Source: an uncultured Actinomycetes bacterium (lineage in GTDB: Bacteria; Actinomycetota; Thermoleophilia; Gaiellales; F1-60-MAGs149). Taken from it: DNA of 64,000 nucleotides. The DNA lies in NCBI GenBank assembly GCA_963779685.1, contig CAVZZG010000001.1, positions 748,102 through 812,101 on the forward strand, in the 5' to 3' direction. The translations under genes and the position numbers were made by a program. The notes under the pieces were generated by a model that was not told the origin of the DNA, made no database searches, and saw only the letters and a program-made list of their open reading frames with translations. Numbering within the stretch: the first letter of the stretch is position 1; every line of letters starts with the position of its first letter. Positions 3,628-62,790 of the stretch are shown here, piece after piece.

Positions 3628-5228
3628 ATGCGCCGCCTGCTGATTGCCCTCGTCCTCGCCATCGCGATCATGGCCCAGCTCGCGCCCGGGGCGCTGGCGT
3701 CGGGACCGGGTGGCTGGGATCATCTCGGACACGGGGCCGACGAGCGGCGTCGCAGCCCTGAACGGCGCGGTCTACGCCCTCGCCACCGACAACAGCGGGC
3801 TCACTCTGTACGCGGGCGGCGCCTTCACCGACGCCGGCTGGCAACGCCAGCGCCGATCACATCGCGAAGTGGAATGGCGTCGCCTGGAGCGCGCTGGGCC
3901 CGGTGGGCCTCAACGCCAATGTCCGCGCCATCGCCGTCCACGGCAGCACGGTCTACGTCGGCGGCAACTTCACCGACGTCGGCGGCAACCCCGATCTCGA
4001 CTACCTCGCGGCGTGGAACGGCACGAGCTGGTCCTCTCCCTGCACCTCGACCATCCCCGGCCCGGCCATCACGGCCGCCGTGCTCGCGCTGCAGATCATC
4101 GGCAACACGCTCTACGTCGGCGGCTCGTTCGCGAACGGCGCGGGCATCGCGTCCGCCGACTTCCTGCTCGCCTGCGACCTCACGACCGGCGCGCCGAGCT
4201 CCACGGTGCTCGCCGACGGCGACCATCAACAGCGGCGATCCTCGCCCTGACCGCCGACAGCAACGGCGTGCTGTACGCCGGCGGGTCGTTCATCAACCTG
4301 GACGGCATCGCGGACGCCGACCACATCGCCGCCTACGACGGCACGTGGCACGCCATGGGCGGGCCGGGCGCCGTCGACGACAAGGTGCGATCACTCGCCG
4401 CGCACGGGACGGACGTGTACGTCGGCACGGACGCCGTCAACATCGCCGGGATCGCGCAGGCCGACCACGTCGCCAGGTGGAACGGCTCCGCGTGGAGCGC
4501 CGTGGGCTCGAACACCGCCGGCACCGACGGCTGGTTCCCGGCCACGAGCTTCATCTACGCGATGGTCACGCAGGGCCAGAACGTGTTCGCGGCCGGCTCG
4601 TTTCAGAACGCCAATGGCCAGGCAACCGCCGACCGGCTCGCGTACTTCGACGGCACCATCTGGCGATCCGCTCGGGTCGGACGGCGCCGGCAACGGCGCC
4701 CTGAACTCGGAGGTCGACGCACTGGCCACGTTCCGGCTCGAGCTCGACGCCGGCGGCAACTTCACCAACGCCGGTGGCGACGGCCTTGCCGATAGCGTCG
4801 GTTCCTACGCAGTCCTGCGCCCCGACGCGCGCATCGGCACGCAGCTCGCAGGTCCCTTTGCCGGCAACGACGTCTACAGCGCCACCGGCGCCGGCGAATC
4901 GAAGGCCATCCGCGTCAAGCGCCGCCACCGCGGCACGCTCTACGTCGACATCCAGAACGACGGCCTCTACAGCGACACCTTCAAGCTCCACGCAACCGGC
5001 GCGGCCCGCGGGTTCGCCGTCTCCTACTACCGGGGAGCGACCAACGTGACCGCCGCGGTCAAGGCCGGCACCTACTCGACCGGCACGCTGCTGCCGGGAG
5101 CGCACCTGACTCTCAAGATGCTCGTCCGGCTCTCGTCAACCAGCGGCCGCTCCGGCACGTTCCTGATCAGGGCCACCTCGCCAGGCACGGCCCCGGACAG
5201 CGTCAAGGCCATCGTCAAGGCATCCTGA
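3628..5228 (+). pseudogene. Secreted beta-propeller repeat protein, frame-broken about 5 times
   Basis: RBS AGGAGAAGGAG precedes ATG 3628. Signal peptide MRRLLIALVLAIAIMAQLAPGALA. Repeats of the form VxALAxxGxxLYAGGxFTxxGGxxAxxIAxWNGxxWSALG can be followed through frames 1>2>0>1>2>0, with breaks near 3730, 3839, 4221, 4238 and 4660. The C-terminal Ig-like part is intact to the stop at 5228. Confidence 0.7.
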
Positions 5229-5249
5229 CGTCCGGTTGGTTTGCCAGGG

Positions 5250-5714
5250 TCAGTACTCGTTCTTGATCACGAAGTAGGAGCCGCGGATGGTTCCGGCGAG
5301 CTTCGACTTCTGGCGCGCGAACTTGAAGCGCGGGGCGAGCTCCGCGGGGATGTCCATCCCGTCGGAGAGCTTGAATCCGACCGCCCGCTTCCTGGCGTCG
5401 TCGACCGTGTACATGACGTTGATCGAGAGGCCGCTCTCGTAGAAGACGTAGGCCATGCGGATGTCCTCGACCTGGAAGGACGTCGCCTCCAACGGGCGGG
5501 ACGCGATGACGATGTCGCGTTCCTCCTTGAGGATCCGGTGCACCCAGTCGACGGTCGCCTGGGCTTCGCCGGCGGGCTCCACCGTGAAGTCGTGGTCGTA
5601 CTTGTTCTTGAAGTAGCGCGCCTCGTTCGCCCGGAGACCGGCGAGCGCGGCCGCGACCGGTGACGACTCGAGGCCGACGGTCGACACGGTAGTGAAGTCC
5701 ACGGTGTAGGGCAT
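5250..5714 (-). CDS. Hypothetical protein (154 aa), no family recognised
   Basis: Clean ORF. GGAG lies 6 nt upstream of the ATG at 5714, while the longer ORF start at 5735 has no RBS. Coding-like third-position bias. Sequence MPYTVDFTTVSTVGLES...SYFVIKNEY. Confidence 0.6.
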   Translation of the reverse strand: MPYTVDFTTVSTVGLESSPVAAALAGLRANEARYFKNKYDHDFTVEPAGEAQATVDWVHRILKEERDIVIASRPLEATSFQVEDIRMAYVFYESGLSINVMYTVDDARKRAVGFKLSDGMDIPAELAPRFKFARQKSKLAGTIRGSYFVIKNEY

Positions 5715-5876
5715 GATGCACTCCGGAAGGCGCATGGCCGTTGCTGTCCGCCGGAGGATACGTCCGAATCGACGTCACCGCCGCCGTGCTTGCCGAGAAC
5801 TGCATGGGCAGGTTGCGCAGTGGCCAGGGTAAACCCGCTACCGCAACGGCTGGCCGCGTCCTACGCTCGGTCGAGC

Positions 5877-6564: not shown

Positions 6565-8088
6565 TCACGTGGCCTCCGCCTGGGAGGCGACCGCGGTCGC
6601 CTCGCGCCGGTCGCCGAGCAGGTAGAGCACGACCGCGAGTACGGCCAGGCCGGCGATCGGTGCGAGCACGAGCAGCTCGAACGTCGACCGGTCGCCGGCG
6701 AATCCGGCCGGCAGCGCCGAGTCCGGGTCGGCCAGACCGAACCCCGGCCAGAGCAGGCAGACGGCTGCGAGCGCCGACCAGGCGGTGGCGGAGACCGTCA
6801 CCAGCCAGGCAACGGCCTGCCCGCCCGGAACGCGGAACGGCCGTTCGAGGTCGGGCCGGCGGAGCCGGAGGGCGAGGAAGGCCGGGAAGATGAGCAGGTA
6901 GGCGAGCACGATCAGGGCGATCGAGACCGTCAGGGCGGCGGAGAAGTAGCGCTGCGAGTCGCCACCCGTGGCCCGGATGTCGACCGCCATCGCGAGCCAC
7001 GAGATGGCGCCGGAGACGACGCCCAGGACGACCGGGACACCGGTGCGCTCGGAGATCCGGCCGAGGAACGCCGGGCCGGCGCCGTCGATGCAGGCGGCCG
7101 CCTGAGTGCGGCTCGTGCCCATGATCCAGGCGGCGCCGCTCGCGAGCAGCACCCAGATGAACAGCGCCGCGCAGCCGGCGCCGAGTACGGCGCCGGCACC
7201 CGTCAGCTGCACCGTCCCGTCGGGGTCGACCGATCCGCCGTAGACGGTGAAGACCGTCCGCATCGCGTCGATCAGGCCGTGGACGGACGTGACCGCCGAC
7301 GGCGGCAGCACGACCAGCACGGCGAGCACCGGCACGCCGTACATCACGAGCTGGCCGACGCCCGCGCGGCCGATCGCCCACGGGATGTCGCGGCGCGGGT
7401 CGACCATCTCCTCGCCGCGCCGCGGCCGGCAGCTCGATGCCGACGAACGAGTACAGGAGCACCGGGACGACGGCGATGAACACGGCGGCCGAGGGCGAGA
7501 GGTCGCCGGCGGCGAAGCCGTGCACGCCGTGGGCGATGCCGTACATCGACGGCGCTGACGTGAACACCACGAGCAGCACGATCTGCCCGACAGCGCCGCT
7601 GGTCGGCACCCACTTGCCGTAGCCGCAGTGGCGCCACGGCAGCGACCGTGGCGACACCGACGAAGACGGTGCCGAAGGCGATTGCGCCGCCGGTGCCGAG
7701 GTGACCGAAGAAGCGCGACCACACGGCGAGGGCGATTGCGACCGACGGAGCCGCCGAGCCAGAACGGGGTGCCGGCCCAGTACAGCAGCGACGTCACCGC
7801 GCCGGCGAAGCGGCCGAACGCCTCGCGGACCCAGACGTAGCAGCCACCCTCCTCCGGGAGCGCGGCGCCGAGCTCGGCGTTGGCGAGCGCCGACGGCACG
7901 AAGAAGAGGACGAAGAGCGCGACGAGCCACGTGAAGGCCTGCACGCCGCCGATCGCGACCGCCCCCACCGTGTCGATCACGACCATGGCCGAGAGCAGGA
8001 AGAACACCGTGTCGAGGCGCTGCAGCTCGCGCCGCAGGCGCGAGTGCTGGAGCGCGCGCCAGTCGGACGACTCGACCTGCGTCGTCAT
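6565..8088 (-). pseudogene. APC-superfamily amino-acid permease, three frame breaks
   Basis: AGGAGG RBS before ATG 8088 (MTTQVESSDWRAL...GGCYVWVREAFGRFAG). The sequence continues in a second frame (AVWSRFFGHLGTGGAIAFGTVFVG), then a third (KWVPTSGAVGQIVLLVVFTS...LLYSFVGIE), and returns to the first (EEMVDPRRDIPWAI... to the stop). Confidence 0.75.
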
Positions 8089-21085: not shown

Positions 21086-21650
21086 GAGTCGGTGCCGCGC
21101 CGACGGCGCCGCCACCACCAGACGCCGCCGACTCCGGCGAGTGCGACGGCGGCGATGCCCGCGACGATCCATCCCCACGGCGTGCTCGTGTCCTCTGCCG
21201 GTGTGACGGCGGCGGCGACGGCCGCTGGATGGTCGATGCCGCTGGTCGCGGGACTCGTCGTCGCCCCGGTGGTCGCGGTGGTTGGGCTCGGCGCACTGGT
21301 CGCCGGCGGCGCCTCGGCCGTGGTCGGCGGCGGCGCGGCTGTGGTGGCGGCGGTGTGGTCGGCGGCTGGACGGTCGTCGGGGGTGGCTCAGCGGTGGTCG
21401 GCGGTGCCTCGGCAGTGGAGGTCGGCGGCGCCGGTTCGGTGGCGGTCGGAGGGCTCGGTGCGGTCGCGATCGGCGGGGCGACGGAGACGGTGGGCGCCGC
21501 GGCCGGCCGCGTGATCGTCGGCACCGTGAGCGTGGTTCCTCCCACCGTCGCGGTACCGCCACCACATGCCGTCGCCGCCGTCAGGACGAGCGCGAACCCG
21601 AGGCCGATGGCAACCTGCCGCCAACTGGTTGGCCTGGCGTTGTCAGTCAT
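21082..21650 (-). pseudogene. Pro/Thr/Ala-rich envelope protein with lipobox-like N-terminus and C-terminal TM anchor, frame-broken near 21340-21390
   Basis: ATG 21650 opens MTDNARPTSWRQVAIGLGFALVLTAATACGGG, followed by a PT-rich tract. That frame degenerates into poly-Arg. Another frame continues TAATTAAPPPTTAEAPP...TPWGWIVAGIAAVALAGVGGVWWWRRRRRGTDS to the stop at 21082. Confidence 0.5.
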
Positions 21651-24243: not shown

Positions 24244-25951
24244 GTGATCGGGTCGAGGCTGCGCTCCGCGGTGCCGGGTTGGCGGATGCTTGCCGACTAC
24301 CAGCGGCCGTGGCTGGCAAAGGATCTCGTGGCCGGGGCGGTGCTGACCACGCTCCTGATCCCGCAGGGGATGGCGTATGCCGAGCTGGCCGGGTTGCCGG
24401 CGATCACCGGGCTCTACACGTCCGTGCTCTGCCTGGCCGGGTACGCGCTGTTCGGCCCGTCGCCGATCCTGGTGCTCGGCCCGGACTCGTCGCTGGGTCC
24501 GATGATCGCGGCGACGCTGCTCCCGCTCGTGGCGGCCCAGGGCGATCCGGAGCGGGCCGTGGCGCTGGCCTCGATGCTGGCCCTGATGACCGGTGCGATC
24601 GTCGTGCTCGCGGCGGTGCTCCGGCTGGGCTTCGTCGCCGACCTGCTGTCCAAACCGACGCAGATCGGGTACATGAACGGGTTGGCGCTGACCATCCTCG
24701 TCGGCCAACTGCCGAAGCTCTTCGGATTCAAGGTCGACGCCAGCGGCTTCATCGACGAGGTCCGGGGGTTCGTCGAGGGCGTCGCCGACGGTGACACGGT
24801 CGGCGCGGCACTCGCGCTCGGCCTCGTGTCGCTGGCACTGATCCTCGGTCTCCGCAGGTTGGCGCCGAAGGCCCCGGGCGTCCTGATCGCGGTGGTCGTG
24901 TCGATCGCGGCCGTCACCGTGTTCTCGCTCGTCGAGCACGATGTCAGCGTGGTGGGGAGCCTGCCGTCCGGCTTCCCACCGCTCACCATCCCCGACGTCA
25001 ACGCGAGCGACCTCTCGGTGCTCGCCCTCGGCGCCGTCGGGATCGCCGTCGTCTCGCTCGCGGACACGATCTCGACTGCCTCGGCGTTCGCCGCGCGCAG
25101 CGGCACGGAGGTCGACGGAAACCGCGAGATGATCGGCATCGGCGCTGCCAATATCGCGGCGGGCCTCTTCCAGGGGTTCCCGGTCTCGACCAGCGGCTCG
25201 CGCACGGCTGTCGCCGAGCAGGCCGGCGCCAAGACCCAGGTCACCGGACTGGTCGGCGCAGGCGCGATCGTCCTCGTGATCGTCTTCTTCCCGTCGCTGT
25301 TCCGGAACCTGCCCCAGCCGACGCTGGCGGCGATCGTGATCGCCGCCTCCCTGTCACTCGCCGGACGTTCCGGCCACCGTCCGCCTCTACCGCCAGCGGC
25401 GCGTCGAGTTCGCGCTCTCGATGGCGGCCTTCGGCGGCGTGACGCTGTTCGGGGTCCTGCCCGGGATCGGGATCGCCGTCGCTCTCTCGATCGGCAACGT
25501 GTTCCGGCGTTCCTGGTGGCCGTACCGGGCGGTCCTCGGGCGGGTCGCTGGCGTGCCCGGCTACCACGACCTGCGCGAACACCCGTCGGCCGAACAGCTT
25601 GGCGGCTGCGTCCTGTTCCGCTTCGATGCCCCGGTCTTCTTCGCCAACACCCGCACCTTCCGCGAAGACATCCGCCGGCTGGCCGCCGCCGATCCGCCGC
25701 CGCGATGGATCATCGTCGCTGCCGAGCCGATCACCGATATCGACACGACCGCGGCCGACATGCTCGTGGACCTCGACGAGGGGCTGAACGCCCGCGGCAT
25801 CAACCTCGTCTTCGCCGAGATGAAGTTGCCGGTGCGCGAGAAGATCCACCGCTACGGCCTCACCCGCACGATCGACCCGAACCACTTCTACCCCACGATC
25901 GAGGCTGCCGTCGACGCGTTCCGCGCCGAGATCGAGGGCGACTGGAGTTGA
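24244..25951 (+). pseudogene. Second SulP/STAS anion transporter, single frame break at about 25363
   Basis: The N-terminal 370 codons are intact. At ctc-gcc-G-gac the frame moves +1, then continues DVPATVRLYRQRRVEFALSMAAFGGV... through the STAS domain (VLFRFDAPVFFANTRTF) to the stop at 25951. Confidence 0.75.
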
Positions 25952-27557: not shown

Positions 27558-28829
27558 CTATGTCGAGACGTGCGGCTGCGGCCGGTATGCCAGGTAGCCG
27601 CGCTGCGTCGCGATGTGGTCGGCCAGGTGCCTGGCGTCGTGCCACACGCCCCAGATGAAGCTCGATCCGCGCCGCGACAGCCACGGCAGCCCGAGGAAGT
27701 AGACGCCGGGCTCGGCCGACACGCCGCGCCGGTGCCGCGGCCGGCCGCGCTCGTCGAAGGCGTCGACCTGCAGCCAGCCGTAGTCGACGGCGAAGCCGGT
27801 CGCCCAGATGATCGAGGTCACGCCGGCGCTCGCCAGGTCGAGCTCGAGGATCGGATCGGTCACGCAGGCGGGGGCGGGCCCAGGATGCGCGCGTCCGGCT
27901 CCTCGGGGAGGTCGAGGCCGTTGCGCGCGACGTAGGCGTCGGCCTCGTCCAGCAGCGACAGGTAGTTGGCGTCGCCCTTGGCGATGTTGTCGCCGAGATC
28001 CGGCGCGAACCGCATCGCGCCGTCGTCGAACGACAGCGTCCGGCCGACGCAGCGTCATGCCGCGAGCGGCGAGGTCGCGGAAGTCGACGGTGTGGCCGCC
28101 GTCGGCTCCGCTGACCGCGATCGTGACGTGCTCGGCGCCCTGCGCGGGGGTCTCGGCGTCCCACTTGCCGAGGACGCCGAGCCACCAGACAGAAGTCGCG
28201 CCCGCGATAGCGCCGCGGCGGCCGGTCGTGCGGGCCGACCGAGAGGTAGACGCGCCGCCCCGACGCGCAGCAGCTCGTCGGCGATCTGCATGCCCGACGA
28301 TCCCGGCCCCGACCACGAGCACCGCGCCCTCGGGCAGCTGACCCGGGTTGCGGTAGCGCGCTGGAGTGGATCTGCAGTGGGCCCGGCATCGTCGGGAACG
28401 ATCGCCGGGATGACCGGGCGCTGGAACGGTCCGGTCGCGGCCACGACGTAGCGTGGCCTCGATGGTGCCGTCGGACGTCTCGACGCGAAAGCCGGGCCGG
28501 CCGACGTTCCTGCGCACCGACGTCACCTCGACGCCGCACCGGATCGGCGCCGCGATCTTCTCCGCGTAGGCCACGAAGTAGTCCGCGACCCGTTCCTTGG
28601 AGGCGAAGGCGTCGGGGTCGACGTCGGAGAACTCGAGGCCCGGGAACCGGTCGTGCCAGGCGGGGCCGTTCGCGACCAGGGAGTCCCACCGCCCGGAGCG
28701 CCAGCGCTCGGCGATGCGCTGCCGCTCGAGAACGAGGTGCGGCACGCCGCAGCTGCTCAGATGCTCGCTCATGGCGAGACCGGCCTGGCCCGCGCCGACG
28801 ACGAGTACCTCGACCGTTTCGCTCGCCAT
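27558..28829 (-). pseudogene. Flavin-containing (FMO/Baeyer-Villiger-like) NAD(P)/FAD oxidoreductase, at least 7 frame breaks
   Basis: ATG 28829 opens MASETVEVLVVGAGQAGLAMSEHL. The sequence can then be followed through VVAATGPFQRPVIPAIVPDDAG / LQIHSS / RYRNPGQLPEGAVLVVGAG / SSGMQIADELLR / RRVYLSVGPHDRPPRRYRGRDF / WWLGVLGKWD... / VGRTLSFDDGAMRFAPDLG... / VTSIIWATGFAVDYGWL to the stop at 27558. Confidence 0.7.
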
Positions 28830-31858: not shown

Positions 31859-33241
31859 TCAGCGCGGGTCGAAGATGCTCGGCGCCGGCTGCTGGCCGGC
31901 GAGCAGGAGCGCGATCTGGCGACCGCCGTGGATCGAGGGCAGGAAGCCGACGCCGTTGCATCCGAGGTTGTAGAGCAGCGAAGGTCGGCCCGGGGTGGGC
32001 GCCGATCACGCGCACCATCCCGTCCATGTAGCCCATCAGCCCGTGCCAGTGGAAGTCGTAGGGCTGCCCGGCCGGCCGCGCGCGCTGCGCGTAGGGGCGC
32101 ACCGCGGTGTCGAGCTCGGTCAGCAGCTCCCCGGGGAACGGCGCCCAGGGGTCGTAGACGCCCTCGTGCGGCCACTCCGGTCCGCCCATGCAGGTGAGCG
32201 TCACGGCGCCGCCGGGCTGGTCGTAGGTTCGCCGGGTGATGTACACGTACGCCGACTCGCCGCTGCCGACCGTCTGGTTTCGGATGTAGCTCATGGCCGT
32301 GGGCGTGCGCGCGTGCTGTTCGGCGAACGCGGCCATGAACCCGTAGGTGCCGACGACCCGCTGCTCCGGATGGAGCAGCAGCGGCGTCCCGGCCTCGTCC
32401 TCGACGACGTGCCTGGAGTAGCCATTGGTGCACAGCACGACGCGCGCCGCGCGCACGCGACGGCCGTTCGCCTGCAGCTCGACGCCGGCCGGTGCGACGA
32501 CGACGCGCTCCACCTCGGTGTGGTCGGCGAAGTGCAGCCGGTCGGGGTACCGGCGCTCGAGGTAGGCGAGCACCTGCTGGCACAGCAGGCCGCTGTTGGC
32601 GGCTCCCTTGCGGTCGGACAGCACTGCCCGGTAGCGATCGTCGTCGGTCTCGAGCAGCTCGCGGATGCGCGCCTGCGGCACGACCGTGTAGAGCGCGGCG
32701 AACTCGGCCGGGATCTCGTCCACGAAGTCGGCTTCGGCGGAGACGGCGCACGGCTCGAGCCGGAGGCCGCCCTGCGCGCGCAACTGGTTGTTGCGCAGGT
32801 GCACCAGCACGTGGTCGAGGGAGAACATGCCCATGTGGCCCGTGAACCGCTCGATGCGGACGGTCGCGCCCGCCTCGGTCGACCATCAGGTCGAGCAGGT
32901 CGTGGGCGTCGTCGAACGCGCGCTGGCCCTCGATCGCCAGCGTCGGGGCCGAACTGCTCGGCGATGTCATACAGGGGCCGCTCGAAGTAGGTGGTGAGCT
33001 GGCCCGCGTTGCGGCCGCTCGCGCCGTGCGCGACACGGTCGCGCTCGAGCACGAGGACGCGCAGGTCGGTCGAGCGCAACGTGAAGAACGCCGTGGCGAT
33101 GCCGGCGATGCCCGCGCCGACGATGGCGACGTCGGTCTCGACGTCCGTCTCGAGTGGCCGCGGGTCGCCGAGCGGCTCGAGCTGCGCGATCCAGGGCGAC
33201 CTGACGGGCAGGTCGGGATAGGTGGTCTCCGTCTGCGACAC
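31859..33241 (-). pseudogene. FAD-dependent (DAO-family) oxidoreductase, three frame breaks
   Basis: The N-terminus DVAIVGAGIAGIATAF...HGASGRNAGQL leads to IEGQRAFDDAHDLLDLMV, then MGMFSLDHVLVHL...VVLCTNGYS...FHWHGLMGYMDGMVRVIG, then PSLLYNLGCNGVGFLPSIHGGRQIA...FDPR and the stop at 31859. Minus-strand frames run 2>1>0>2. Confidence 0.7.
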
Positions 33242-34618: not shown

Positions 34619-34619
34619 G

Positions 34620-35596: not shown

Positions 35597-38500
35597 TCAG
35601 TCGTCGACCTGCCCGGCCAGCGCGAGCGAGTCGACGCGGTCGCCGACGAGCAGCCGCACCCGCACGACCGCCCGCGTCACCCACGCCTCGCGCGCGAGCC
35701 GCTCGACGCGGCGCTCGGCGCTGTACACCACCACGTGGCCGGTCGCGGGCGGTCTCGACGACGAAGCCGGTGAAGTCGCCGAAGTGGTCGTAGCGCAGCG
35801 AGACGACCTTGCCGGTGACCGTGCCGGCGGCCGTGGCATCGCGGTCGTCGCCGGACTCGTCGTCGCGGTCGTGCCCGTGGCCGTCGTGCGGCCCGTGGCC
35901 GCCGCACCACTTCCACGGGTGCTTCCAGTCGCCGTCGCCGGTCGCGACGATGATCGTCGGGTCGCCGCCCATGCCGGCGACGCGGCCCGCGTAGAGGTCG
36001 ACGTACCGGCGGAACACCGGCCACCACTTCGTCTCGAGCGGCACCGACTGCTCGATGTGGCGCAGGATCGACAGCGTGCGCTCCTCGTCGGCAGGAGCAT
36101 CGGCGCCTTGGTGCTGACCGGGATCTCGAGGCCGAAGGCGCCGATCGTACGTCGGTAGAGGAAGCCCTTGCGGGACTCCGTCATCGAGGGAGCTCTTCAT
36201 GACCGTCGCAGGGGCGACGGCGCCGATCGCGACGTTGCACGTGCTTGCGCGCCGCGCGATCGTCTCGTGCCGATCTCGACCTGCCGCCCGACGCCGAAGC
36301 GGGCGCCGGTGATCTGGCGCACCCGCACCGAGTAGCGCTCGCCCTTGTGCACGGTCGGCGGCAGCTCGACGGCCATCAGGCCGACGTGGTCGACGGTCGG
36401 ACGGCGCCCGGCACCGGCACGAACGTCACGCCGCCGGCCTCGCAGCGACGAGCGTGTGGGCGTCGACGAGCGCGAGCCGGTTCGAGACGTACATCGTGTG
36501 CGCCCAGTCGAGCGCGGCGGCCGCGTCGACGGTCGGCAGGTAGATCGACGCGCCGGGTGCCGGCCGGGCACGTTGCCCCAGTCGATCATCAGCTCGTCGG
36601 GCCGGCCGTCGAGCGGCGACGGCCGGCGTCGGCCGGATCTGCAGCGTCTGCGGAGCCACCCGCGAGTCGACCACGCCCGGGTTCGGGACGCCGACGAAGG
36701 TGAGGTTGCGCTGCGCGAGCTTGTCGGAGGTCGACGGGTCGGCCGCAGTTCGGGATCGTCTGGCCGTCGAGGTTGAGCTCGACGATGCAGGCACTGGTGG
36801 AGGCTGCGAACGTGCTGCTGGATCGACAGCAGCGGGCCCGTGCCCTGGAACGGCCCGTCCGGCAGGTTGGCCGGCGTCGATGCCGATCAGCCGCGCCGGG
36901 GAAGCGCAGGTCGGTGGGCTGGTTGATGTCGAGCCAGCAGCCGAAGTAGGCGACGACCTCCGCGCCCGAGGCTGTCGTGGACGATCGTGCGGACGTTCGG
37001 GGCGTCGGTCTGCGTGGTCATGCTGACCGTCGCCGAGTTCGACGCGCGGCTCGGCGAAGAACGGGATCGTCATGATCTCGTCGCCCTGCCGACCGAGCAG
37101 CGGCACGTGGCGCGACCCCGCGGTGAAGCGTGCGGTAGAGCGTGGTCGGGTCATGGACGGCGTTCGTCTGCTGGGCCGGCCACATGCGGAAGAACGCGCG
37201 CACGTTCGGCGCGTCCTGGTTGAGGTCGCGTAGCCGCACCCGGCGACGGCGAAGTTGAAGACGCCGGTGCCCGGCGCCGTCGGTCGGCGCGAGCGTCAGC
37301 GCCTCGGGGTCCTCGTGCGGGTCGATCGCGTCGAACTCGCTGCCCAGCGCCGGGATGCCCGTTCAGGTTGGTGAGCACGCGACTGGATGAAGCTCGTTGC
37401 GACGTTGCCGGCGGCGCCGCTCGTCGCGAGCGTCGCGCCGAAGCGGTGGCCGCCCTCGGTGACCTGGAAGACGCGGATGTCGATGCTCGTCCACCAGTCG
37501 AGGCCGCGACCCGGGTCGCCGTCGAGGATGTACGGGTCGGGCGACTGGAGCAGGCGCAGCACGCCGGCGTTGGCGACGGTCTGGCCGGCGGCGGTGAGCA
37601 CGGCCGTCGCGGTGATGATCCTGCGATCGGCCCGGTGAAGCTGAACATCGCGTCGCTGTCGAAGCTGGAGGACGAACGGGAACGTGAACCGCTGCGGCAC
37701 GTTCGGCGGCATGCTCGGATCCTCCGGCAGCACCTTGCCCCGCTGCACGACGTGCAGTCCGCCGACGGGGACGGGAAGGTCGGCGACGATCGGCGGCGAC
37801 GCGAGGTTCGCGGCGGTCAGGCCGAGCTCGGCGGCGGTGTAGCCCTCGACCACCACGAGGATGGCGGGATCGATCATCGGCCGGCGCCCCGTTCAGCGAG
37901 ATCAGCGCCTGCACCTCGCCGTGGCCCGACGGTCGAGCGGTCCATGACGAGGAAGCAGTCGCGGGTGCCGACGCTGACCGGGCAGCGCCGCCGAGGCGAT
38001 GCCGTTGGCGACCACCTCGAGGTTCCAGGCGCCGGGCGGGATGTTCGCGGGCACCTCGACGACGGCGGTGACCGTCGCCGTCCCGGTCGCGATGCCCATC
38101 GTCGAGAAGTCGCGCGTGCGCAGGTAGTGCACGTCGCCTGAGGCATTCGTCAGCCGGACCAGCGGGTAGTTCGTGGCGTTCTGGCGGTCGTCGCCGTAGC
38201 CGTTGGCGTGGGTGAGGCCGTTCAGCTGGGTGCCGGCGATCTGGTATGCGTGCCCGGCGATCAGCGCCGACGGGGCGGCCGTGAGCGGTCGGCCGCCAGG
38301 ACGCCTGCGGCGTCAGCTCGGCCGCGTCCGGGGCGTACTCGTTGATCGTGTTCTGCTCGCCGCTCATCAGCACGTGGCCGTTGGGCAGCAGCAGGAAGCA
38401 GCACTGCCAGGTGTGCCCGGGCGGGCTCGACGGCTGGTTCGGCTGCGTCGTCAGGGTGGTGGCGGTCTCGTTGACGTCGCAGATCGTGACCGGCCCCGAG

Positions 38501-39489
38501 AAGAACTGGCCGCCTGCGTCGACCGGGCCCGAGGTGACGAGCACGTGGCCGTTGGGCAGCACGACGACGGCGCCGTCGAGCGAGGTCTGCAGGCCGGCGG
38601 GGGCGTTGGTGTTGCCGGCGTCGGCCGGGCAGGTCGGGCCCGGCGACCCATGAGCCCTTGGCGGTCGGGGTCGCACCGGAGGTGTAGACGCCGGTGTGGC
38701 CGCTACCGCCGACGAAGAACGCCTTGCCGTTCATCAGCGTCACGGCCCCGCCGATCTCGTTCAGCGTCGTGCCGCCGATCGCGCCGACCGGCAGCGTCGA
38801 GGCGGTCGACGCCCGCGCTCACCCACTCGTCGCGGCGACGGCACGTACATCTCGGCGTTCTGGGTCGTGGTCGTGCCTGCGATCTGCACCGTGAGCACGT
38901 TGCCGTTGGGCAGCAGGCACCAGCTCTCCTCGTTGGCGGCGCCCACCTTGGTGTTGGCGACCGTGCCGAACTTCGTGCCCGACTCGATCCAGGTGTCGGT
39001 GACCGGATCCCAGATCGCGTTGCGCGGCCGTCGAGAGCGCGCCGAACATGACCCGGCCGTCCTCGAGCACGATCGAGACGCAGTCGCCGACGATGAAGTC
39101 GAAGCCCGGCGTCGGCTTGTTCAAGCGTCGACCAGGTGCCGGATCCGGGCTCGAAGATCTCGGCGCGGGTGTCGTTGTCGGTGTTGGTGTCGGTGTCGCC
39201 GAGGATGTCGGAGTACTCGCCGCCGACGACGAACACGCGGCCGTCCTTCAGCACGCCGCTGCCGAAGTACTTGCGCTGACCGGTCATCGGCAGCGCGCTC
39301 GACCAGGTGCCGTTGCGGTAGTCGCCGTGACCGTCAGGCGTGAGGCGGTACCAGTTGCGCCCGCCGTAGGTGTCGCTCGAGCGACGGCCGGTTGGCGTCG
39401 TGCACGAGCACGGTGCCGTCGGTGAGTAGCAGCATGGTGCCGGCCCTGCACGCCCGACGGTGCGTTGAACGTGTTCCAGGTGCCGCTCA
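35597..39489 (-). pseudogene. Heavily frame-broken (at least 20 breaks) large locus with N-terminal Kelch/galactose-oxidase-like beta-propeller + Ig-like domain and an uncharacterised ~750-codon remainder. It reads as one long gene but could be 2-3.
   Basis: GAGGAGGGG RBS 4 nt before ATG 39489. MSGTWNTFNAPSGVQ / AGTMLLLTDGTVLVHDAN / GRRSSDTYGGRNWYRLTPDG...GVLKDGRVFVVGGEY / LNKPTPGFDFIVGDCVSIVLEDGRVMFGA / ESWCLLPNGNVLTVQ / TLMNGKAFFVGGSGH / VVVLPNGHVLVTSGP...LLLPNGHVLMSGE are the blades. TVTAVVEVPANIPPGAWNLEVVANG is Ig-like. Unassigned segments follow, ending GKVVSLRYDHFGDFTGFVVET...VRVRLLVGD and the stop at 35597. Confidence 0.55.
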
Positions 39490-42762: not shown

Positions 42763-42815
42763 CGGAACGAGACAGTACGTGCCGGTTCTGAAGGCGTTCT
42801 TAGGATGCTGCCGCC

Positions 42816-47715: not shown

Positions 47716-47719
47716 CGGG

Positions 47720-49015: not shown

Positions 49016-49090
49016 CAATACCCCGGCACCGACTATACCGGCTCGCGCAATGCGAGCTAGGATGGCCGGACGGCTGCAGCGAGGAGGATC

Positions 49091-50093
49091 GTGATGGCGG
49101 TGACGGGCGAGCGGACGGTCGAGCTGACCGCAGACACGCTGCGCGGCATGTACGAGCGGATGGCGCTGATCCGGACGTTCGAGGAGACGACCATGCGGCA
49201 GTTCGCGGATGGCCAGATCCCCGGCTTCGTGCACCTGTACGCCGGCGAGGAGGCGGTCGCGGTCGGGGTCTGCGCGCACCTCTCGGACGCCGACTTCATC
49301 ACCAGCACCCACCGCGGCCACGGCCACTGCATCGCCAAGGGCGTCGACGTCGGCGGCATGGTGGCCGAGCTGATGGGCCGTCGGACCGGGCTCTGCAAGG
49401 GCAAGGGCGGCTCGATGCACGTCGCCGACGTCGAGAAGGGGATGCTCGGCGCCAACGGCATCGTCGGCGGCGGCTACCCGCTGGCGTGCGGGGCCGCGCT
49501 GACCGCGAAGGTGCACGGCAGCGGCGCCGTCGCCGTCTGCTTCTTCGGCGATGGGGCCGCCAACCAGGGCACCTTCCACGAGAGCCTCAACCTGGCGTCG
49601 ATCTGGAACCTGCCGGTGGTGTTCGTGTGCGAGAACAACGGCTACGCCGAGGCGACGCCGTTCAGCTATCACTGCTCGACCGCCGACATCGCCACCCGTG
49701 CGCAGGGCTACGACATCCCCGGCGTGGTGGTCGACGGGCTCGACGTGCTGGCCGTGTTCGAGGTCGTGGGCGAGGCGATCGCCCGGGCCCGGCGCGGCGA
49801 CGGGCCCAGCGCTGATCGAGGCCAAGACCTACCGCTTCTACGGCCACGAGGAAGGCGACACCGGCACCTACCGCACCGCCGAGGAGGTCGAGGCGTTCCG
49901 CGCCCGCGACCCGCTGACGACGTTCGGCGCGCACCTGACGCGCAACGCGATCGCGACCGAGGCCGATCTGGAACGGATGACGGCCGCCGCCCAGGCCACG
50001 GTCGACGCCGCCTATACGGCGGCCGCCGCCGCACCCTGGCCCGACCCGGCCGAGACCTACGACGACGTCTACGTCAGCTACGGGGGGCGATGA
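49091..50093 (+). pseudogene. acoA: TPP-dependent dehydrogenase E1 alpha subunit (acetoin/pyruvate dehydrogenase type), single frame break at 49811
   Basis: Contains HLYAGEEAVAVG, GKGGSMH and CFFGDGAANQGTFHESLN. At agc-G-ctg the frame moves +1 and continues LIEAKTYRFYGHEEGD... to the TGA at 50091-50093. Confidence 0.75.
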
Positions 50094-51178
50094 TCATGGC
50101 GACGGTCGGAACCCGTACCCTCACCTACTCCGAGGCCGTGAACGAGGCGCTGCGGATCGCGATGCGCCAGGACTCGAACGTGATCCTGCTGGGTGAGGAC
50201 ATCGCCGGCGGGGCGGGCGTCGACCACCTCGTCAACGACGAGGCCTGGGGCGGCGCGCTGGGCGTGACCAAGGGCCTCGTGCAGGAGTTCGGCCGCGAGC
50301 GCGTGCTCGACACGCCGATCACCGAGTCGGGTTTCATCGGCGCCGCCGTCGGTGCCGCGGCCACCGGGCTGCGCCCGGTCGCCGAGCTGATGTTCGTCGA
50401 CTTCTTCGGCGTCTGCATGGATCAGATCTTCGACCAGGGCGCGAAGCTGCGGTACATGTTCGGCGGCAAGGCGCGCTGCCCGCTGGTGATCCGCACGACC
50501 ATCGGCGCGGGCCTGAACGCCGCCGCCCAGCACTCCGGCTGCCACTACTCGGTCTTCACCCACATGCCGGGCGTCAAGACGGTGGCGCCGTCCACGCCGG
50601 CCGACGTCAAGGGCCTCTTGCTGGCAGCGATCCGCGACGACGACCTGGTGATGTTCTTCGAGCACAAGCTGCTGTACGGCATGCGGGGCGAGGTGCCCGA
50701 GGGCGACGAGGCGATCCCGCTCGGGGTGGCCGACATCAAGCGGGCCGGCGACGACGTGACGATCGTCGCCATCAGCCGGATGGTGCATCACGCGCTGGAG
50801 GCCGCCGACCAGCTGGCGGCAGAGGGGATCGAGGCGGAGGTGGTCGATCCCCGCACGCTGTCGCCGCTCGACAGCGACACCATCCTCGAGTCGGTTGCGA
50901 AGACGCACCGGCTGGTGATCGTCGACGAGGACAACCCGCTCTGCAGCGTCGCCACGACGATCGCGGCGGTGGTCGCGGACGAGGGCTTCGACAGCCTCGA
51001 CGCGCCCATCAAGTGCATCCACGCGCCCCACTCGCCGGTGCCGTTCAGCCCGCCGCTCGAGCAGGAGTACATCCCGAGCCCGGAGCGGATCGCCGACGAC
51101 CGTCCGGGGCATCGTCTAGCCCCGGACGGCGAACGCCGCGCATGCCGATCCTCGTCAAGATGCCGAAGTGGGGCCTGA
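50090..51178 (+). CDS. acoB: E1 beta subunit. The 3' end is probably altered by one extra base at about 51101.
   Basis: ATGA overlap with E1 alpha. Contains VLDTPITESGFIGAAVGAA, GAGLNAAAQHS and PLDSDTILESV. As written, the tail is Arg/Ser-rich and overlaps acoC. Removing one C gives ...IADDVRGIV and a stop at 51117-51119. Confidence 0.8.
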   Translation: MIMATVGTRTLTYSEAVNEALRIAMRQDSNVILLGEDIAGGAGVDHLVNDEAWGGALGVTKGLVQEFGRERVLDTPITESGFIGAAVGAAATGLRPVAELMFVDFFGVCMDQIFDQGAKLRYMFGGKARCPLVIRTTIGAGLNAAAQHSGCHYSVFTHMPGVKTVAPSTPADVKGLLLAAIRDDDLVMFFEHKLLYGMRGEVPEGDEAIPLGVADIKRAGDDVTIVAISRMVHHALEAADQLAAEGIEAEVVDPRTLSPLDSDTILESVAKTHRLVIVDEDNPLCSVATTIAAVVADEGFDSLDAPIKCIHAPHSPVPFSPPLEQEYIPSPERIADDRPGHRLAPDGERRACRSSSRCRSGA

Positions 51179-57231: not shown

Positions 57232-57522
57232 TACCCGGGCCAGGCGGCGTCCGAGCTCGCCGGCACCCCCGGCCGGGCCGTCGGCGGAGGACCGATGGTC
57301 GGCCCGGCGGGGGGAGGAGAGGAGCAGCCCGAGGGCTGCGATGAGGGGTCAAGTGGGACAGGGCGGACGGTGGCGTGTCGACAACGGTCGGTGGCGACGC
57401 TCAACCCGCACGCAACGACGCCTCAACCGATTCCCGCCCGGCAGGCCCACCTTCCGCGACGCGGCGGTCGGGCAAGGCGCGTGGTTTGTCTCAAGAGGTG
57501 GGCTTTGCAAGCCGATCTTGGC

Positions 57523-57960
57523 ATGGTGGCGACGTCGCTCTCCCGACGTGCGCGAGTTGCCGGCGTCCTGTTGACGGCGGCACTGGCCGCCTGCGCCGGT
57601 CATTCGGCGCCGAAGGCGGCTGGGGGCCCGGTGGTGGCGGTGGAGGAGAAGGACTTCGTGATCGTCGCGCCGGCGCGGCTCCCGGCCGGCGACGTGACGC
57701 TCACCGTCCTGAACCAGGGCCCGGTGCGGCACGAGCTGATCATCGTGCGCTCGGTAGCCGGGACGCTGCCGCTTCGCTCCGATGGCACCACCGCGAACGA
57801 GGAGGCGCTTGCGCCCGTTACGGTCGAGGCCCTCGAGCCGGCTCCCGCGGGTGCCTTCCGCCAGGCCCACCTGCACCTCGCGCCCGGCATCTACGAGCTG
57901 TTCTGCAACATGGACGGGCACTACCGGGCCGGGATGCACACCCAGCTGACGGTGTACTGA
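57523..57960 (+). CDS. Cupredoxin-like lipoprotein with type-1 copper ligand pattern
   Basis: ATG 57523 opens MVATSLSRRARVAGVLLTAALAACAG (lipobox). Putative ligands are the His in VRHELII and the C-x4-H-x4-M in FCNMDGHYRAGMH. Confidence 0.7.
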   Translation: MVATSLSRRARVAGVLLTAALAACAGHSAPKAAGGPVVAVEEKDFVIVAPARLPAGDVTLTVLNQGPVRHELIIVRSVAGTLPLRSDGTTANEEALAPVTVEALEPAPAGAFRQAHLHLAPGIYELFCNMDGHYRAGMHTQLTVY

Positions 57961-57961
57961 G

Positions 57962-60307
57962 ATGCCGGGCCGGACCACGTTCAGACCGCTCGAGTCCGGT
58001 GGCCGCCGTGTCGTCGTCGCGATCGTCGCGACCTTTGCGCTCGTGTCGGCGGGGACGGTGGTGCTGTCCATCAACGGCACCGCCCGCGCGCGTCACCGGG
58101 CGGCCGTGATCGAGGTGGCGGCGCGGCAGCGTATGCTGGCCGACCGCTACGTGCGCGACGTGCTGCTGGTGCGCGAGGGACGACCGGCGGATCCGGCTCA
58201 GACGGCGCTGCTGCTGCTCCAGAGCGCCGACGTGCTGCTGAGCGGCGGCGCGGTGCCGCCGGCGTTGGGCGACGACGACGGCACCACGCTGTCCGCGACG
58301 ACCGACCCGGGCGCCCGTGCCCAGCTGGTGCAGGCGCGGCGACTGGCCGCCGACCTGACCGCTACCGGAGCCGCGATCCTGGCGGGCCGACCGGCCGAGT
58401 ACGTGCGGTTGACCGCGGGCGAGAAGCTCGACACGTTCGATCCGATCCAGCGCCTGACCATCCTTGCGGCGGTCACCTCGAACGTCTCCCTGAACGCCGC
58501 GCGGTCGATCGGCACCGGTGCCGACAACTCGATCGAGAGCCTCATCAACCTCCAGGTCGCGCTCGGGATCGCGGGCCTCGTGATCTCGCTGCTCCTGGCC
58601 TGGGCGCTGATCGCCGTCACCCGCCGCCAGACGGCGCACTTCCGCAGTCTCGTCACGTCGTCGACCGACCTCGTGCTCGTCTTCGTCGGCGGCGGCTGCG
58701 GCTACGCCAGCGAGTCGGTGGCGTCCATGCTCGGGCGTGCCGACGCCGAGCTACTCGGCGACGGCTTCGCCGAGCGCGTCCATCCCGAGGACCGCTCGGT
58801 CTTCGAGGCAGCGATTGCCACCGCCCCGACCGGAGGCGTGGAGTTCCGCGTGCGCAACCGCTTCGACGAGTGGCGGAACCTCGAGGCGCTCGTCACCGAC
58901 CTGCGCGCCGATCGCCTCGTGCGCGGCGTCGTGCTCAACGCGCGCGACATGTCCGAGCACGTGCGGCTCGAGGAGGAGCTCACCCGCCGTGCCTTTCACG
59001 ACGACCTCACCGAGTTGCCGAACCGGGCGCTGTTCCGCGACCGGCTCGATCATGCACTCGCCCGCTCGGTCGACAACGGCGACGCGCTCGCGGTACTGCT
59101 GGTCGACCTCGACGGCTTCAAGAAGGTCAACGACACGCTCGGCCACGACGCCGGCGACCGCCTGCTGCGCGAGGTCGGGCACCGATTCGAGCGAACGATG
59201 AAACGAGCGACCGACACCGTCGCGCGCCTCGGCGGCGACGAGTTCGCCGTGCTGCTCGAGCACTCCGCGGAGAGCCGGGCACACGAGGTCGCAAGCGCGC
59301 TCCTCACCCAGCTGGCTGTCCCGTCGGGCGTTGCGGGATGGGATGTCGCAGTGAGCGCGAGCATCGGCATCGCCATCCACACCGGCGGGGCGGGCGACAG
59401 CGAGGAGATGATCCGGCGGGCCGACATCGCGATGTACGCCGCCAAGGATGCAGGTCGCGGACGCTACGAGGTGTTCAACGAGGACATGACGCGCCAGCTG
59501 GGCGAGATGGTCGGTCTCGAGCACGAGCTGCGGCTTGCGATCGACCGCGGCGAGCTGAGCGTGCACTACCAGCCGGAGTTCGTGGTGACGACGGGCGCGA
59601 TCGCCGGTGTCGAGGCGCTCATCCGGTGGTCGTCGCCGAAGCTCGGCTGGATCCCGCCGTCGACGTTCATACCGCTGGCCGAGCAGACCGGGCAGATCCT
59701 CCCGATCGGCGAGCAGGTGCTGGTCGAGGCCTGCAGGCAGACGGCAGCCTGGGATGCGCAGGGCATCCTGCCGGACGGCTTCCGGACGTGGGTCAACGTC
59801 TCGGGCAAGCAACTCGTGGCCGGCGGTCTCGGTGACCTGTTCGAGCGGGCGCTCGCACGGGCCGGCCTGCCTGCGGAGCGGATCGGCATCGAGGTGACCG
59901 AAACGGCCGTGATCCAGGATGGCGCGGCCGGTGAGCGAGCCTTCGCCGAGCTCCAGGCCCTGCACGACCGGGGCATCCGGATCGCCCTCGACGACTTCGG
60001 CACCGGGTTCTCCTCGCTGGGTCAGCTGCGCCGCTTCCCGATCGATGTCGTGAAGGTCGACCGGTCGTTCATCCAGGGTCTCGAGCACAACGCGAAGGAC
60101 GCCGCCATCACGGCCAACGTCGTCAGCCTCGCCCACGCGCTCGGGCTGATGGCGATCGCGGAGGGCGTCGAGTCCACGGGCCAGCTGGCGGCGCTCGAGA
60201 TGCTCGGATGCGACTTCGTCCAGGGATTCCTGTTCGCCCGGCCCGACACGGCCGATTCGATCTCCCGATTCCTCGCCACCTACCAGCCCGAGGCGGAAGC
60301 AGCCTGA
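57962..60307 (+). CDS. Membrane sensor: PilJ/NarX-type periplasmic domain - TM - PAS - GGDEF - EAL
   Basis: The ATG lies 1 nt after the cupredoxin stop. AARQRMLADRY matches the AGRQRMLSQR box of PilJ-N/nitrate-sensor domains. Other motifs are RLGGDEF, EALIRW, EVTE and DDFGTG. Confidence 0.9.
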   Translation: MPGRTTFRPLESGGRRVVVAIVATFALVSAGTVVLSINGTARARHRAAVIEVAARQRMLADRYVRDVLLVREGRPADPAQTALLLLQSADVLLSGGAVPPALGDDDGTTLSATTDPGARAQLVQARRLAADLTATGAAILAGRPAEYVRLTAGEKLDTFDPIQRLTILAAVTSNVSLNAARSIGTGADNSIESLINLQVALGIAGLVISLLLAWALIAVTRRQTAHFRSLVTSSTDLVLVFVGGGCGYASESVASMLGRADAELLGDGFAERVHPEDRSVFEAAIATAPTGGVEFRVRNRFDEWRNLEALVTDLRADRLVRGVVLNARDMSEHVRLEEELTRRAFHDDLTELPNRALFRDRLDHALARSVDNGDALAVLLVDLDGFKKVNDTLGHDAGDRLLREVGHRFERTMKRATDTVARLGGDEFAVLLEHSAESRAHEVASALLTQLAVPSGVAGWDVAVSASIGIAIHTGGAGDSEEMIRRADIAMYAAKDAGRGRYEVFNEDMTRQLGEMVGLEHELRLAIDRGELSVHYQPEFVVTTGAIAGVEALIRWSSPKLGWIPPSTFIPLAEQTGQILPIGEQVLVEACRQTAAWDAQGILPDGFRTWVNVSGKQLVAGGLGDLFERALARAGLPAERIGIEVTETAVIQDGAAGERAFAELQALHDRGIRIALDDFGTGFSSLGQLRRFPIDVVKVDRSFIQGLEHNAKDAAITANVVSLAHALGLMAIAEGVESTGQLAALEMLGCDFVQGFLFARPDTADSISRFLATYQPEAEAA

Positions 60308-60406
60308 CCGCGTCGGTAGCCGGGCCGCGAGTCCGGGCGCCGACAGGAGGGTCGATCCACGTTTCCGCTCGGCCGCGCTGCCGACCCGGCCTACAATTGC
60401 GGCCAG

Positions 60407-60853: not shown

Positions 60854-60867
60854 CTGCGATCGGCTGG

Positions 60868-61629
60868 TCAGCGGCTCGCGAGGCCGGTGGCGATCGACAG
60901 CACGCCGGCGGCGAATGCGCTGGCCAGGACGAGCGGTTCGTAGTAGCGCGGCGGGAGGCGCAGGAACAGCTGCCGGCCGACGGCGTGGCCGAGGATCGCC
61001 ACCGGTACCAGGACCGGGATCCAGCCGGCCTTGCCCAGGCTCGCGCTGCCCGCGATCACGTACAGGACGGCGAGTCCGACGATGTCGAGCGTGAAGAAGA
61101 TCACCGTGACGGCGTCGCGGATGGCCGCCGGGGCCATGCGCCGGGCGGTGAGCCAGATCGCCAGCGGCGGGCCGCTGGTGGTGGTGGAGGTGGTGAGGAT
61201 GCCGACCGCGAAACCCGCTGCGACCGCTGCGCCCCGGCCGGTGCCCGAGTGCCTCGGCCGGCCGTTGCGTCGCACCAGGCGCGCGAGCACGATGCCGCAG
61301 ACGGCGATGCCGACCGCGATCTTCATGGCCGTCTCGGACACGACCGTGATGATCAGCACGCCGATCGGGAGGCCCGGGATCGCCGCGGCCAGGGCGGGCC
61401 GCACTGCCGTCCAGTCGACCTCGAGCCGGCGGCGCTCGCCGAACATCACCAGCAGGTTGACGACCTGGCCGAGGATCAGCACCAGTGCGACGGCGGCGGA
61501 GGGTGGGGCGACCGCGTACAGCACCGGCCCGGCGATCAATGCGAACCCGAATCCGGTGGCGGCCTGCACGATGGCCGCGACGAGCAGCCCGCAGGCCGCG
61601 ATCACGAGCGCGATGGTCATGGATGACAC
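60868..61629 (-). CDS. TauE/SafE-family sulfite/anion exporter
   Basis: 253 aa with 7-8 TM segments. Contains AATGFGFALIAGPVL and a second repeat GILTTSTTTSGPPLAIW. GGAGAAG RBS before GTG 61629. Confidence 0.85.
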   Translation of the reverse strand: MSSMTIALVIAACGLLVAAIVQAATGFGFALIAGPVLYAVAPPSAAVALVLILGQVVNLLVMFGERRRLEVDWTAVRPALAAAIPGLPIGVLIITVVSETAMKIAVGIAVCGIVLARLVRRNGRPRHSGTGRGAAVAAGFAVGILTTSTTTSGPPLAIWLTARRMAPAAIRDAVTVIFFTLDIVGLAVLYVIAGSASLGKAGWIPVLVPVAILGHAVGRQLFLRLPPRYYEPLVLASAFAAGVLSIATGLASR

Positions 61630-61745
61630 TGCGGCTTCTCCGCGGACGGGTTGCGGGTTCGCATGACGAGGGCGCAGGGTGGGCGCTCGCGTGGAGTATG
61701 GCGCTCGTGCCCCGCCAACCCGGTGCGCCGGTACGCTGCCGGCGG

Positions 61746-62790
61746 ATGGAGCATCGGCAACTAGGGCGTTCGGGGCTTCGCGTCTCGGCGTTGACGTTCG
61801 GGACGATGACGTTCCGCGACCCGGGCGACCTGCCGAAGGTCGGCTCGACCGACATCGCCGGTGCCCGCCGCCAGCTCGACCGGTGCCTGGATGCCGGCGT
61901 GACGCTGATCGACACGGCGGACATCTACGCGTCGGGCCGGTCGGAGGAGATCCTCGGCGAGGCCATGCAGGGTCGTCGCGACCGGCTGCTGATCGCGACC
62001 AAGGCGCGGTTCGCGACGGGTGACGGCCCCAACGACGCCGGGCTCTCGCGCCAGCACCTGATCGCGGCCTGCGAGGCGAGCCTGCGGCGGCTGGGCGTCG
62101 ACCACATCGACCTCTACCAGACGCACGAGTGGGACGGCCAGACCCCGGTCGAGGAGACGGCGGAGGCGCTCGACACGCTCGTGCGCAGCGGCAAGGTGCG
62201 CTACGTCGGCTGCTCGAACTTCACCGGCTGGCAGCTGACGAAGGCGGTCGCGGCGGCCCAGCGGACCGGGCGCGAGCCCTACGTCTGCGAACCAGATCCA
62301 CTACTCGCTCCAGGCCCGCGAGGCCGAGTACGAGATCATCCCGGCCTGCATCGACCAGGGGCTCGGCGTGCTGGTCTGGAGCCCGCTGGCGGGCGGACTC
62401 CTGTCCGGCAAGTACCGTCGCGGCGCCGAGCCGCCGGCCGGATCGCGGCATGCGGGCGACTGGAACGAGCCGCCGGTGCGCGACGTCGAACTGCTGTACG
62501 ACCTGATCGACGCGCTGGTCGAGATCGGCGCGGGCCGGGGCGTGTCGGCTGCGCAGGTGGCGCTCGCCTGGCTGCTCGGCCGGCCGGGCGTCACGTCGCT
62601 CGTGATCGGCGCGCGCACCGACGATCAGCTCGCCGACAGCCTTGCCGCGGCCGAACTCCGACTCGAGCCCGGCGAACGGGCCCGGCTCGACGAGCTCAGC
62701 GCCCCACCGCTGATCTACCCGCACTGGCACCAGCGCGACAGCGCCTCGGATCGCTTCAGCGTGGCCGACCGCGCGCTGCACGGCCCGTGA
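61746..62790 (+). pseudogene. Aldo/keto reductase, single frame break at 62289
   Basis: Opens MEHRQLGRSGLRVSALTFGTMTF. Also contains DTADIY, IATKA, LGVDHIDLYQTHEWD and VRYVGCSNF. At tgc-G-aac the frame moves +1 and continues NQIHYSLQAREAEYEIIPACIDQGLGVLVWSPLAGG... to the stop at 62790. Confidence 0.75.

Follow-up and report, generated by a model that had tools for sequence, protein, structure and literature searches.

Consensus artefacts at collapsed haplotypes or heterozygous sites, where the polishing of a mixed pile-up keeps both alleles, are familiar from diploid and metagenome practice. In bacterial pseudogene decay of the Mycobacterium leprae type, frameshifted genes lie beside intact ones and redundant paralogues are affected, and the lesions form a mixed, deletion-biased set accompanied by nonsense codons, excess substitutions and a raised ratio of non-synonymous to synonymous substitution (dN/dS). 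Programmed +1 frameshifting of the prfB type likewise changes the frame inside conserved coding sequence, at single sites that are conserved in relatives and carry a defined shift motif and an in-frame stop. Insertion and deletion (indel) errors of Nanopore and PacBio long reads split intact genes by spurious single-base changes; such errors are revealed by full-length homologues, become commoner with poor coverage or polishing, are measured by IDEEL-type tests and can be corrected by tools such as proovframe (PMC9262707; 10.1101/2021.08.23.457338). Here we compare these systems with a 64,000-nucleotide stretch (the window) of contig CAVZZG010000001.1 from an uncultured Actinomycetes bacterium, in which a Kelch-repeat protein gene, a flavin-containing monooxygenase (FMO) gene and several others are broken by single extra bases. 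We consider it very likely that these bases are a consensus artefact that arose from the merging of two strain variants and are not in the organism's DNA, and the affected genes are almost certainly not real pseudogenes and should be read as intact.

The window resembles each of these systems in part. As in long-read assemblies, spurious single bases split genes that full-length homologues reveal to be intact; however, long-read errors mainly concern homopolymer length and are often deletions, whereas 41 of 49 insertions here are unlike both of their neighbours and lie at variable sites. Frameshifted genes beside intact ones, with redundant paralogues among them, recall pseudogene decay, yet its deletion bias, mixed spectrum, nonsense codons, excess substitutions and raised dN/dS are not seen. 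Programmed frameshifting also involves +1 steps, but a single gene here carries up to 37 of them, none is present in the relative, and neither a common motif nor a stop following the FMO shift points was seen. The collapsed-haplotype artefact shares the excess of +1 events, an extra base that as a rule is unlike its neighbour, the patchiness and the match to an alternative allele, a link by signature only.

Coding frames in the window, which has a G+C content of 72%, were mapped with a Viterbi model combining codon-position G+C (GC3-based) with a stop-codon penalty. In our frame code, a plus-strand step from f to f+1 denotes one extra base (or two missing), and on the minus strand, followed from high to low coordinates, one extra base gives a step from f to f−1. 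Three-frame reading was used for the frame paths of the FMO, FAD oxidoreductase and beta-propeller genes. The repaired FMO, used as a protein query, led to a homologous protein (P0001) on contig L149, which is syntenic with the window at 92–95% DNA identity. Together with L151, located via the Kelch protein, and L152–L155, located via 90%-identity cluster mates of intact window proteins, L149 forms our close relative: six contigs (L149, L151, L152, L153, L154 and L155) from JGI sample 3300069203, which share 92–96% nucleotide identity with the window and align to ~39.6 kb of it. As outgroups for the allele tests we took L150 for the FMO gene, more distant than L149, and L156 for the Kelch gene, 81% identical to L151. 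A scan of genome contigs with agmatine deiminase returned only relatives at 67–69% amino-acid identity without synteny, and a scan of metagenome contigs with a Fic protein reached at most 61%. Cluster look-ups traced the window proteins to a single NCBI/ENA contig (1,461,940 bp) and to no second assembly.

The frame map switched frame within every gene that a preliminary description, made from the sequence alone, had listed as broken, and left long clean stretches between them. Alignment to the relative placed 49 single-base insertions in six genes to the exact base, and frame tracing added ~10 further +1 events in four genes for which a close relative was not found (the rest of the beta-propeller gene, APC-2, SulP-2 and the FAD oxidoreductase). 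The total is thus ~60–70 single-base events in 64 kb, with ~ten genes broken. Frame map, three-frame reading and alignment all agreed with the preliminary description that the breaks are real and step in the +1 direction, but its figure of about 40 was an undercount. Against the 49 single insertions stand only ~2–7 single deletions in coding DNA. Intergenic 1-nucleotide indels are balanced (~16 insertions versus ~15 deletions), and some intergenic indels are multi-base, as natural variation would give. Alignment of the broken genes to relatives, proposed earlier as a check, upheld the +1 bias and returned no normal mixture of insertions and deletions.

The events are strongly clustered. The remaining ~23 kb of aligned coding DNA contains no frame-breaking indel. 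An even spread would give a mean of ~1.5 events per kb, so the clustering is far from chance. Positions 39741–41088 show zero indels relative to the relative, and the leftover indels in 42669–45627, 46807–49810, 51142–52237 and 54032–60333 are intergenic, in-frame or compensated. Over positions 1–3976, which are 95.4% identical to L152, the sole indels are the two aligned beta-propeller insertions.

The most heavily affected gene encodes the Kelch-repeat protein. The preliminary description had recognized a locus heavily broken in the +1 direction, with at least 20 breaks; it is one gene of 1283 amino acids with at least 37 +1 events. Aligned to L151, it shows 50 indel events, comprising 37 single insertions between 35737 and 39448, 6 single deletions and a few events of 2–4 nucleotides; the indels other than +1 are few and mostly natural or compensated. 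A three-way alignment showed several of the non-+1 events to be natural differences on the relative's side: at 39137 (within 39135–39137) the window and L156 have a codon in common that differs from L151, and at 36088/36105 (36088–36105) they again have in common a state unlike L151. Since these are changes in L151, the window's own spectrum is even more purely +1. Homologues are single proteins of ~1280 amino acids, and ~30 full-length ones back the unbroken frame. Removal of the extra bases restores an open reading frame (ORF) of 1283 codons with 0 stops, in which 1084 codons are identical to those of the relative, 128 differ synonymously and 66 non-synonymously. The mismatch rate is 5.7%, compared with 4.2–5.4% in neighbouring genes.

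These values bear directly on the proposal that the broken genes are genuine pseudogenes, with real frameshifts accumulated under relaxed selection, redundant APC and SulP paralogues included. In favour of that proposal, only certain genes are broken and long genes next to them are intact, the accessory segments holding APC-2 and SulP-2 are missing from the relative, and the Kelch insertions cover the whole gene. However, at usual bacterial indel-to-substitution ratios, drift long enough to produce 37 indels would bring several hundred extra substitutions and some nonsense codons. The Kelch gene instead has its 37 indels without any nonsense codon, a synonymous to non-synonymous ratio of 128:66 and a divergence equal to that of its neighbours. 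Neither nonsense codons, excess substitutions nor raised dN/dS were found in the Kelch or FMO genes, and the window does not show a mixed, deletion-leaning spectrum placed mostly at repeats or runs; it is almost purely +1 and not slippage-like. We therefore regard pseudogene decay as very improbable, and relaxed selection, which the preliminary description had offered as one explanation, is contradicted by the lack of substitution excess and nonsense codons, the balanced intergenic indels and the placement of events in the FMO gene and in an intergenic spacer, described next.

In the FMO gene, seven single-base insertions (28050 C, 28191 A, 28264 C, 28302 C, 28356 G, 28376 A and 28452 C) and a 1-nucleotide deletion at 27879 were found against L149, in keeping with the earlier count of at least 7 breaks. 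All eight events are absent from both L149 and L150, and all fall between 27879 and 28452, that is, within 574 of ~1270 nucleotides. The repaired protein has 420 amino acids and is 91% identical to P0001, >120 homologues back the unbroken frame, and mismatches are as dense in the patch as in the DNA flanking it. The lesions extend over the whole Kelch gene, under half of the FMO gene and, in the dehydrogenase operon, beyond a gene end: E1-alpha and E1-beta are each struck once, and another C is inserted at 51139, in the spacer between E1-beta and E2, 3 nucleotides before the E2 start codon and 42 nucleotides from the E1-beta insertion at 51097. Because the FMO events fill only part of their gene and one insertion falls between genes, these patches appear to be independent of gene borders, which the Kelch patch is not seen to cross; confinement to 574 nucleotides and the hits spread over the operon and its spacer would both argue against pseudogenes. 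The FMO is also unusually conserved, with >120 clusters at protein identity of at least 81%, and its DNA is 88% identical to the L150 copy (1679–2944), which is set in a quite different gene neighbourhood. These two observations suggest horizontal spread of the gene, and such conservation would also favour cross-recruitment of reads.

We then considered the identity of the inserted bases. Only 8 of 49 equal a flanking base, compared with 25.6 ± 3.4 for random insertion, and the other 41 form runs of length 1. Slippage and homopolymer-length errors are therefore unlikely, since both would lengthen or shorten a run of the same base, and the earlier remark that several insertions are not homopolymer extensions applies to most of them. 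The composition of the inserted bases (C19, G15, T9, A6) is similar to that of the genome.

The extra bases are instead related to variation at the adjacent site. The extra base coincides at 21 of 35 testable sites with what a second homologue has at an adjacent variable site, where ~4 matches are expected by chance. In the Kelch gene, 17 of 28 cleanly resolved sites carry the L156 allele of an adjacent column at which the relative differs (control 3.4 ± 1.7, maximum 10 in 2000 trials), and in the FMO gene four of the seven extra bases are the L150 allele at a neighbouring column where L149 differs (control mean 0.55, P = 0.002); in one example, the window reads TA-GC, L149 TA-C and L150 TA-G. 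In many cases, therefore, the two alleles of a variable site stand next to each other in the window. In gene orientation, the three-way alignment placed the Kelch insertions in codon slots as 15/6/7, and 10 of 18 merged neighbours occupied codon position 3, in line with where the family varies; an initial plus-strand codon-slot test, with a uniform 18/16/15, had seemed to speak against allele merging and was superseded by the gene-oriented counts. We also looked in the window for a mosaic of two haplotypes inside the patches, and this signal was not seen. On visual inspection we dismissed cross-mapping within the APC and SulP paralogue pairs, the paralogues being too dissimilar.

The allele matches also weigh on generic long-read noise, that is, on random raw-read insertions that survived in low-coverage or unpolished patches with no link to strain variation. 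A Mb-scale contig of a metagenome-assembled genome (MAG) is plausible for a long-read source, the patchy distribution, the ~1% error density and the genome-like base composition would fit, and residual indels are known to cause frameshifts in long-read assemblies (PMC9262707; 10.1101/2021.08.23.457338). Random errors, however, would match a flank about half the time, would not reproduce another homologue's adjacent allele, and would bring comparable deletions and mismatches, whereas mismatch density is not raised here. We consider this source improbable. For the pseudogene proposal, too, the mirroring of alternative alleles is an obstacle, as mutation does not produce it.

Real insertions made by an unusual process, such as Ku/LigD end-joining or aberrant processing of heteroduplex mismatches, would leave the genes dead or recoded. 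Ku/LigD sealing of double-strand breaks can add single untemplated bases in actinobacteria, and the extra bases here are single and not templated by their neighbours; allele mirroring could in principle arise in heteroduplex DNA, and coding signals are preserved after repair. Yet a relative with 94% identity has none of these events, bases added by end-joining should equal a neighbour as often as random ones do, contrary to observation, and neither a shift-site motif nor a following stop codon was seen at the FMO junctions read. To our knowledge, no mechanism puts ~40 single-base insertions into one gene, and we give this explanation hardly any credence. Even less probable in our judgement is its specific form, in which the bases are truly genomic and derive from recombination between diverged alleles whose heteroduplex mismatches were resolved by keeping both bases; if it were true, the +1 insertions would mark recombination tracts, and the genes would be newly dead or rescued by a recoding step.

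Under the mixed-strain consensus that we favour, the sequence would have been built from reads of two or more co-occurring variants, either strains of the same population or members of a closely related one. At a substitution X/Y, the consensus step would sometimes keep both bases in series (XY), which would add exactly one base, break the frame and leave an inserted base unlike its neighbour. As the error could occur only where the variants differ, it would be found in patches, for example in gene-sized recombinant or variable tracts, and identical stretches would stay clean. A mixed-variant consensus would therefore explain the +1 bias, the base-unlike-neighbour rule, the unchanged substitutions, the intact repaired genes and the patchiness together. 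The indels are absent from close relatives, whose frame is that of the family, and their removal restores intact genes under purifying selection with normal divergence. Several of the patches adjoin, or fall within, regions where window and relative have different gene content, a placement that would fit strain-variable neighbourhoods. Regarding the source, a single Mb-scale contig, of a size typical for long-read MAGs, suggests such a genome, and the contig probably derives from the assembly of a long-read metagenome. Some soil catalogues of long-read MAGs have had only one round of Medaka polishing (PMC12313526); such a catalogue includes several genomes that were among the nearest in the genome scan, and the window's contig may belong to it.

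The preliminary description had already suggested an insertion-type consensus error, which gains support from bases absent from two independent sequences and from repaired genes that are intact and under purifying selection. Of the causes it listed (poor polishing, low coverage or strain mixing), the 21 of 35 allele matches narrow the choice to strain or haplotype mixing, and where it held that the sequence alone could not separate artefact from relaxed selection, comparison with relatives decides.

Several observations weigh against a mixed-strain origin. The two haplotypes or read populations at the sites are something that we infer, 14 of 35 testable extra bases differ from the one usable outgroup, and ten events in four genes come from frame analysis alone. 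The Kelch insertions span the whole gene and the next gene upstream has none, and a patch that coincides with a gene boundary would also fit relaxed selection. The error mode invoked is less documented than errors in homopolymer length, which are the usual fault of long-read consensus sequences (PMC9262707) and do not describe the events here.

The biological weight of the frame breaks is small: they are not a biological feature, and their value lies in quality control. In a public MAG, ~60–70 false frameshifts within 64 kb turn ~ten good genes into apparent pseudogenes or split ORFs, and errors of this kind would bias any estimate of pseudogene load, and likewise of pangenome content and protein families. 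The flags that can be read without raw reads are a spectrum of almost only +1 events, inserted bases unlike their neighbours, identity of the extra base with the adjacent alternative allele, and patches placed without regard to gene borders. Such patches may in addition point to the regions of greatest difference between co-existing strains.

Table 1. Genes of the window with frame breaks, in order of position.
Feature	Coordinates	Strand	Events and remarks
Secreted beta-propeller protein gene	3628..5228	+	five +1 events; weak Rax2-type propeller match (Pfam)
APC-family amino-acid permease (APC-2)	6565..8088	-	three +1 events near 7743, 7643, 7416
PT-rich lipoprotein	21089..21644	-	one candidate step opposite in sign (-1 or +2), in low-complexity sequence near 21340
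SulP sulfate permease (SulP-2)	24244..25944	+	one +1 event near 25355-25363; frame +0>+1
Flavin-containing monooxygenase (FMO)	27558..28829	-	7 single-base insertions and 1 deletion
DAO-family FAD oxidoreductase	31862..33241	-	three +1 events near 32941, 32877, 31979
Kelch-repeat protein gene	35597..39489	-	single gene, 1283 amino acids; 37 single-base insertions
E1-alpha (TPP-dependent dehydrogenase)	49094..50093	+	inserted G at 49811 (versus L153)
E1-beta	50090..51141	+	inserted C at 51097 (versus L153)
Aldo-keto reductase (AKR)	61806..62790	+	inserted T at 62284 (versus L154)

For the remaining genes (Table 1), frame tracing agreed with the break counts given previously for the beta-propeller gene (5), APC-2 (3), SulP-2 (1) and the FAD oxidoreductase (3), and alignments to L153 and L154 bore out one break each in E1-alpha, the 3' end of E1-beta and the AKR gene. 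The nucleotide-level examples offered with those counts were less precise: the G at 49811 is exact, and the others are 1–5 nucleotides off in position or differ in base.

Two of the beta-propeller insertions were placed by alignment to L152 (3733 G and 3838 C), and three more +1 events, at ~4216, ~4229 and ~4664, were read from the sequence, giving a frame path of +0>+1>+2>(+0)>+1>+2. A protein database search with this gene found no close relative, the best matches being 35–40% identical. APC-2 follows frames -0>-2>-1>-0; homologues from L003 and L070 are colinear with it, the junction between AAA and GEEM involves no loss of residues, and the repaired protein matches positions 2–408 of 427 of the Pfam family AA_permease_2 in one stretch. 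SulP-2 matches Sulfate_transp positions 1–379 of 380 in one stretch over the junction, followed by a STAS domain. The three-frame trace of the FAD oxidoreductase runs 3>1>2>3, and its repaired protein matches DAO positions 1–351 of 353, again in one stretch.

In the dehydrogenase operon, the relative has an intact E1-alpha gene of 332 amino acids and an E1-beta of 342 amino acids followed by a 21-nucleotide spacer. The public gene call at 49094–51178 (plus strand) is a fused product of 694 amino acids (P0251) that joins the E1-alpha N-terminus to E1-beta via the wrong frame, a direct annotation consequence of the insertion at 49811. The E2 component (51142–52449, plus strand) has a lipoyl domain and, after it, a fold that by eye looks alpha/beta-hydrolase-like (GHGQS motif region); this layout resembles AcoC of acetoin dehydrogenase, and by this analogy the operon may be acoABC-like. 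The AKR gene of the relative is likewise intact, at 327 amino acids.

The PT-rich lipoprotein, for which 1–2 breaks had been proposed, has one candidate frame step near 21340, of a sign opposite to +1. The L149 alignment covers only its last 125 nucleotides (21089–21213) and not ~21340, and the change there may be natural or artefactual. A lipoprotein beside APC-1 (11862–12746) was considered as the PT-rich gene meant by the preliminary description and rejected, being intact.

The Kelch family is widespread, with ~90 clusters of ~1280-residue proteins at 36–81% identity to a rough repaired query. A Pfam search with the relative's Kelch protein (P0121, L151 7672–11523) returned zero matches; some homologues have matches to Kelch_1 or PF25210 alone, and the C-terminal ~800 amino acids are uncharacterised. 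Between its Kelch and NAGPA genes, L151 has a gene for a 1029-residue PLD/DEAD-helicase (DUF3427) that the window lacks (junction 39740/39741).

Three segments of the window are absent from L155/L149 (5812–11827, 21214–23303 and 24213–27099). The 6-kb block absent from L155 holds a membrane protein, APC-2, a LuxR/LAL regulator and another membrane protein; the others hold SulP-1 with the PT-rich lipoprotein, and SulP-2, whose segment has no match in L149, with two small ORFs. A lone 93-residue ORF after SulP-2 (25983–26263, plus strand) gave no match in a Pfam search and, judged by eye, resembles the C-terminus of a longer enzyme. Within this accessory segment it may represent a true remnant of a gene.

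Some further differences between window and relative look natural: a 10-nucleotide intergenic insertion upstream of the Kelch gene (39533–39542), a compensated +1/−1 pair 3 nucleotides apart within the NDH-2 gene (47965–47968), and a 30-nucleotide intergenic insertion before corA (63022–63051).

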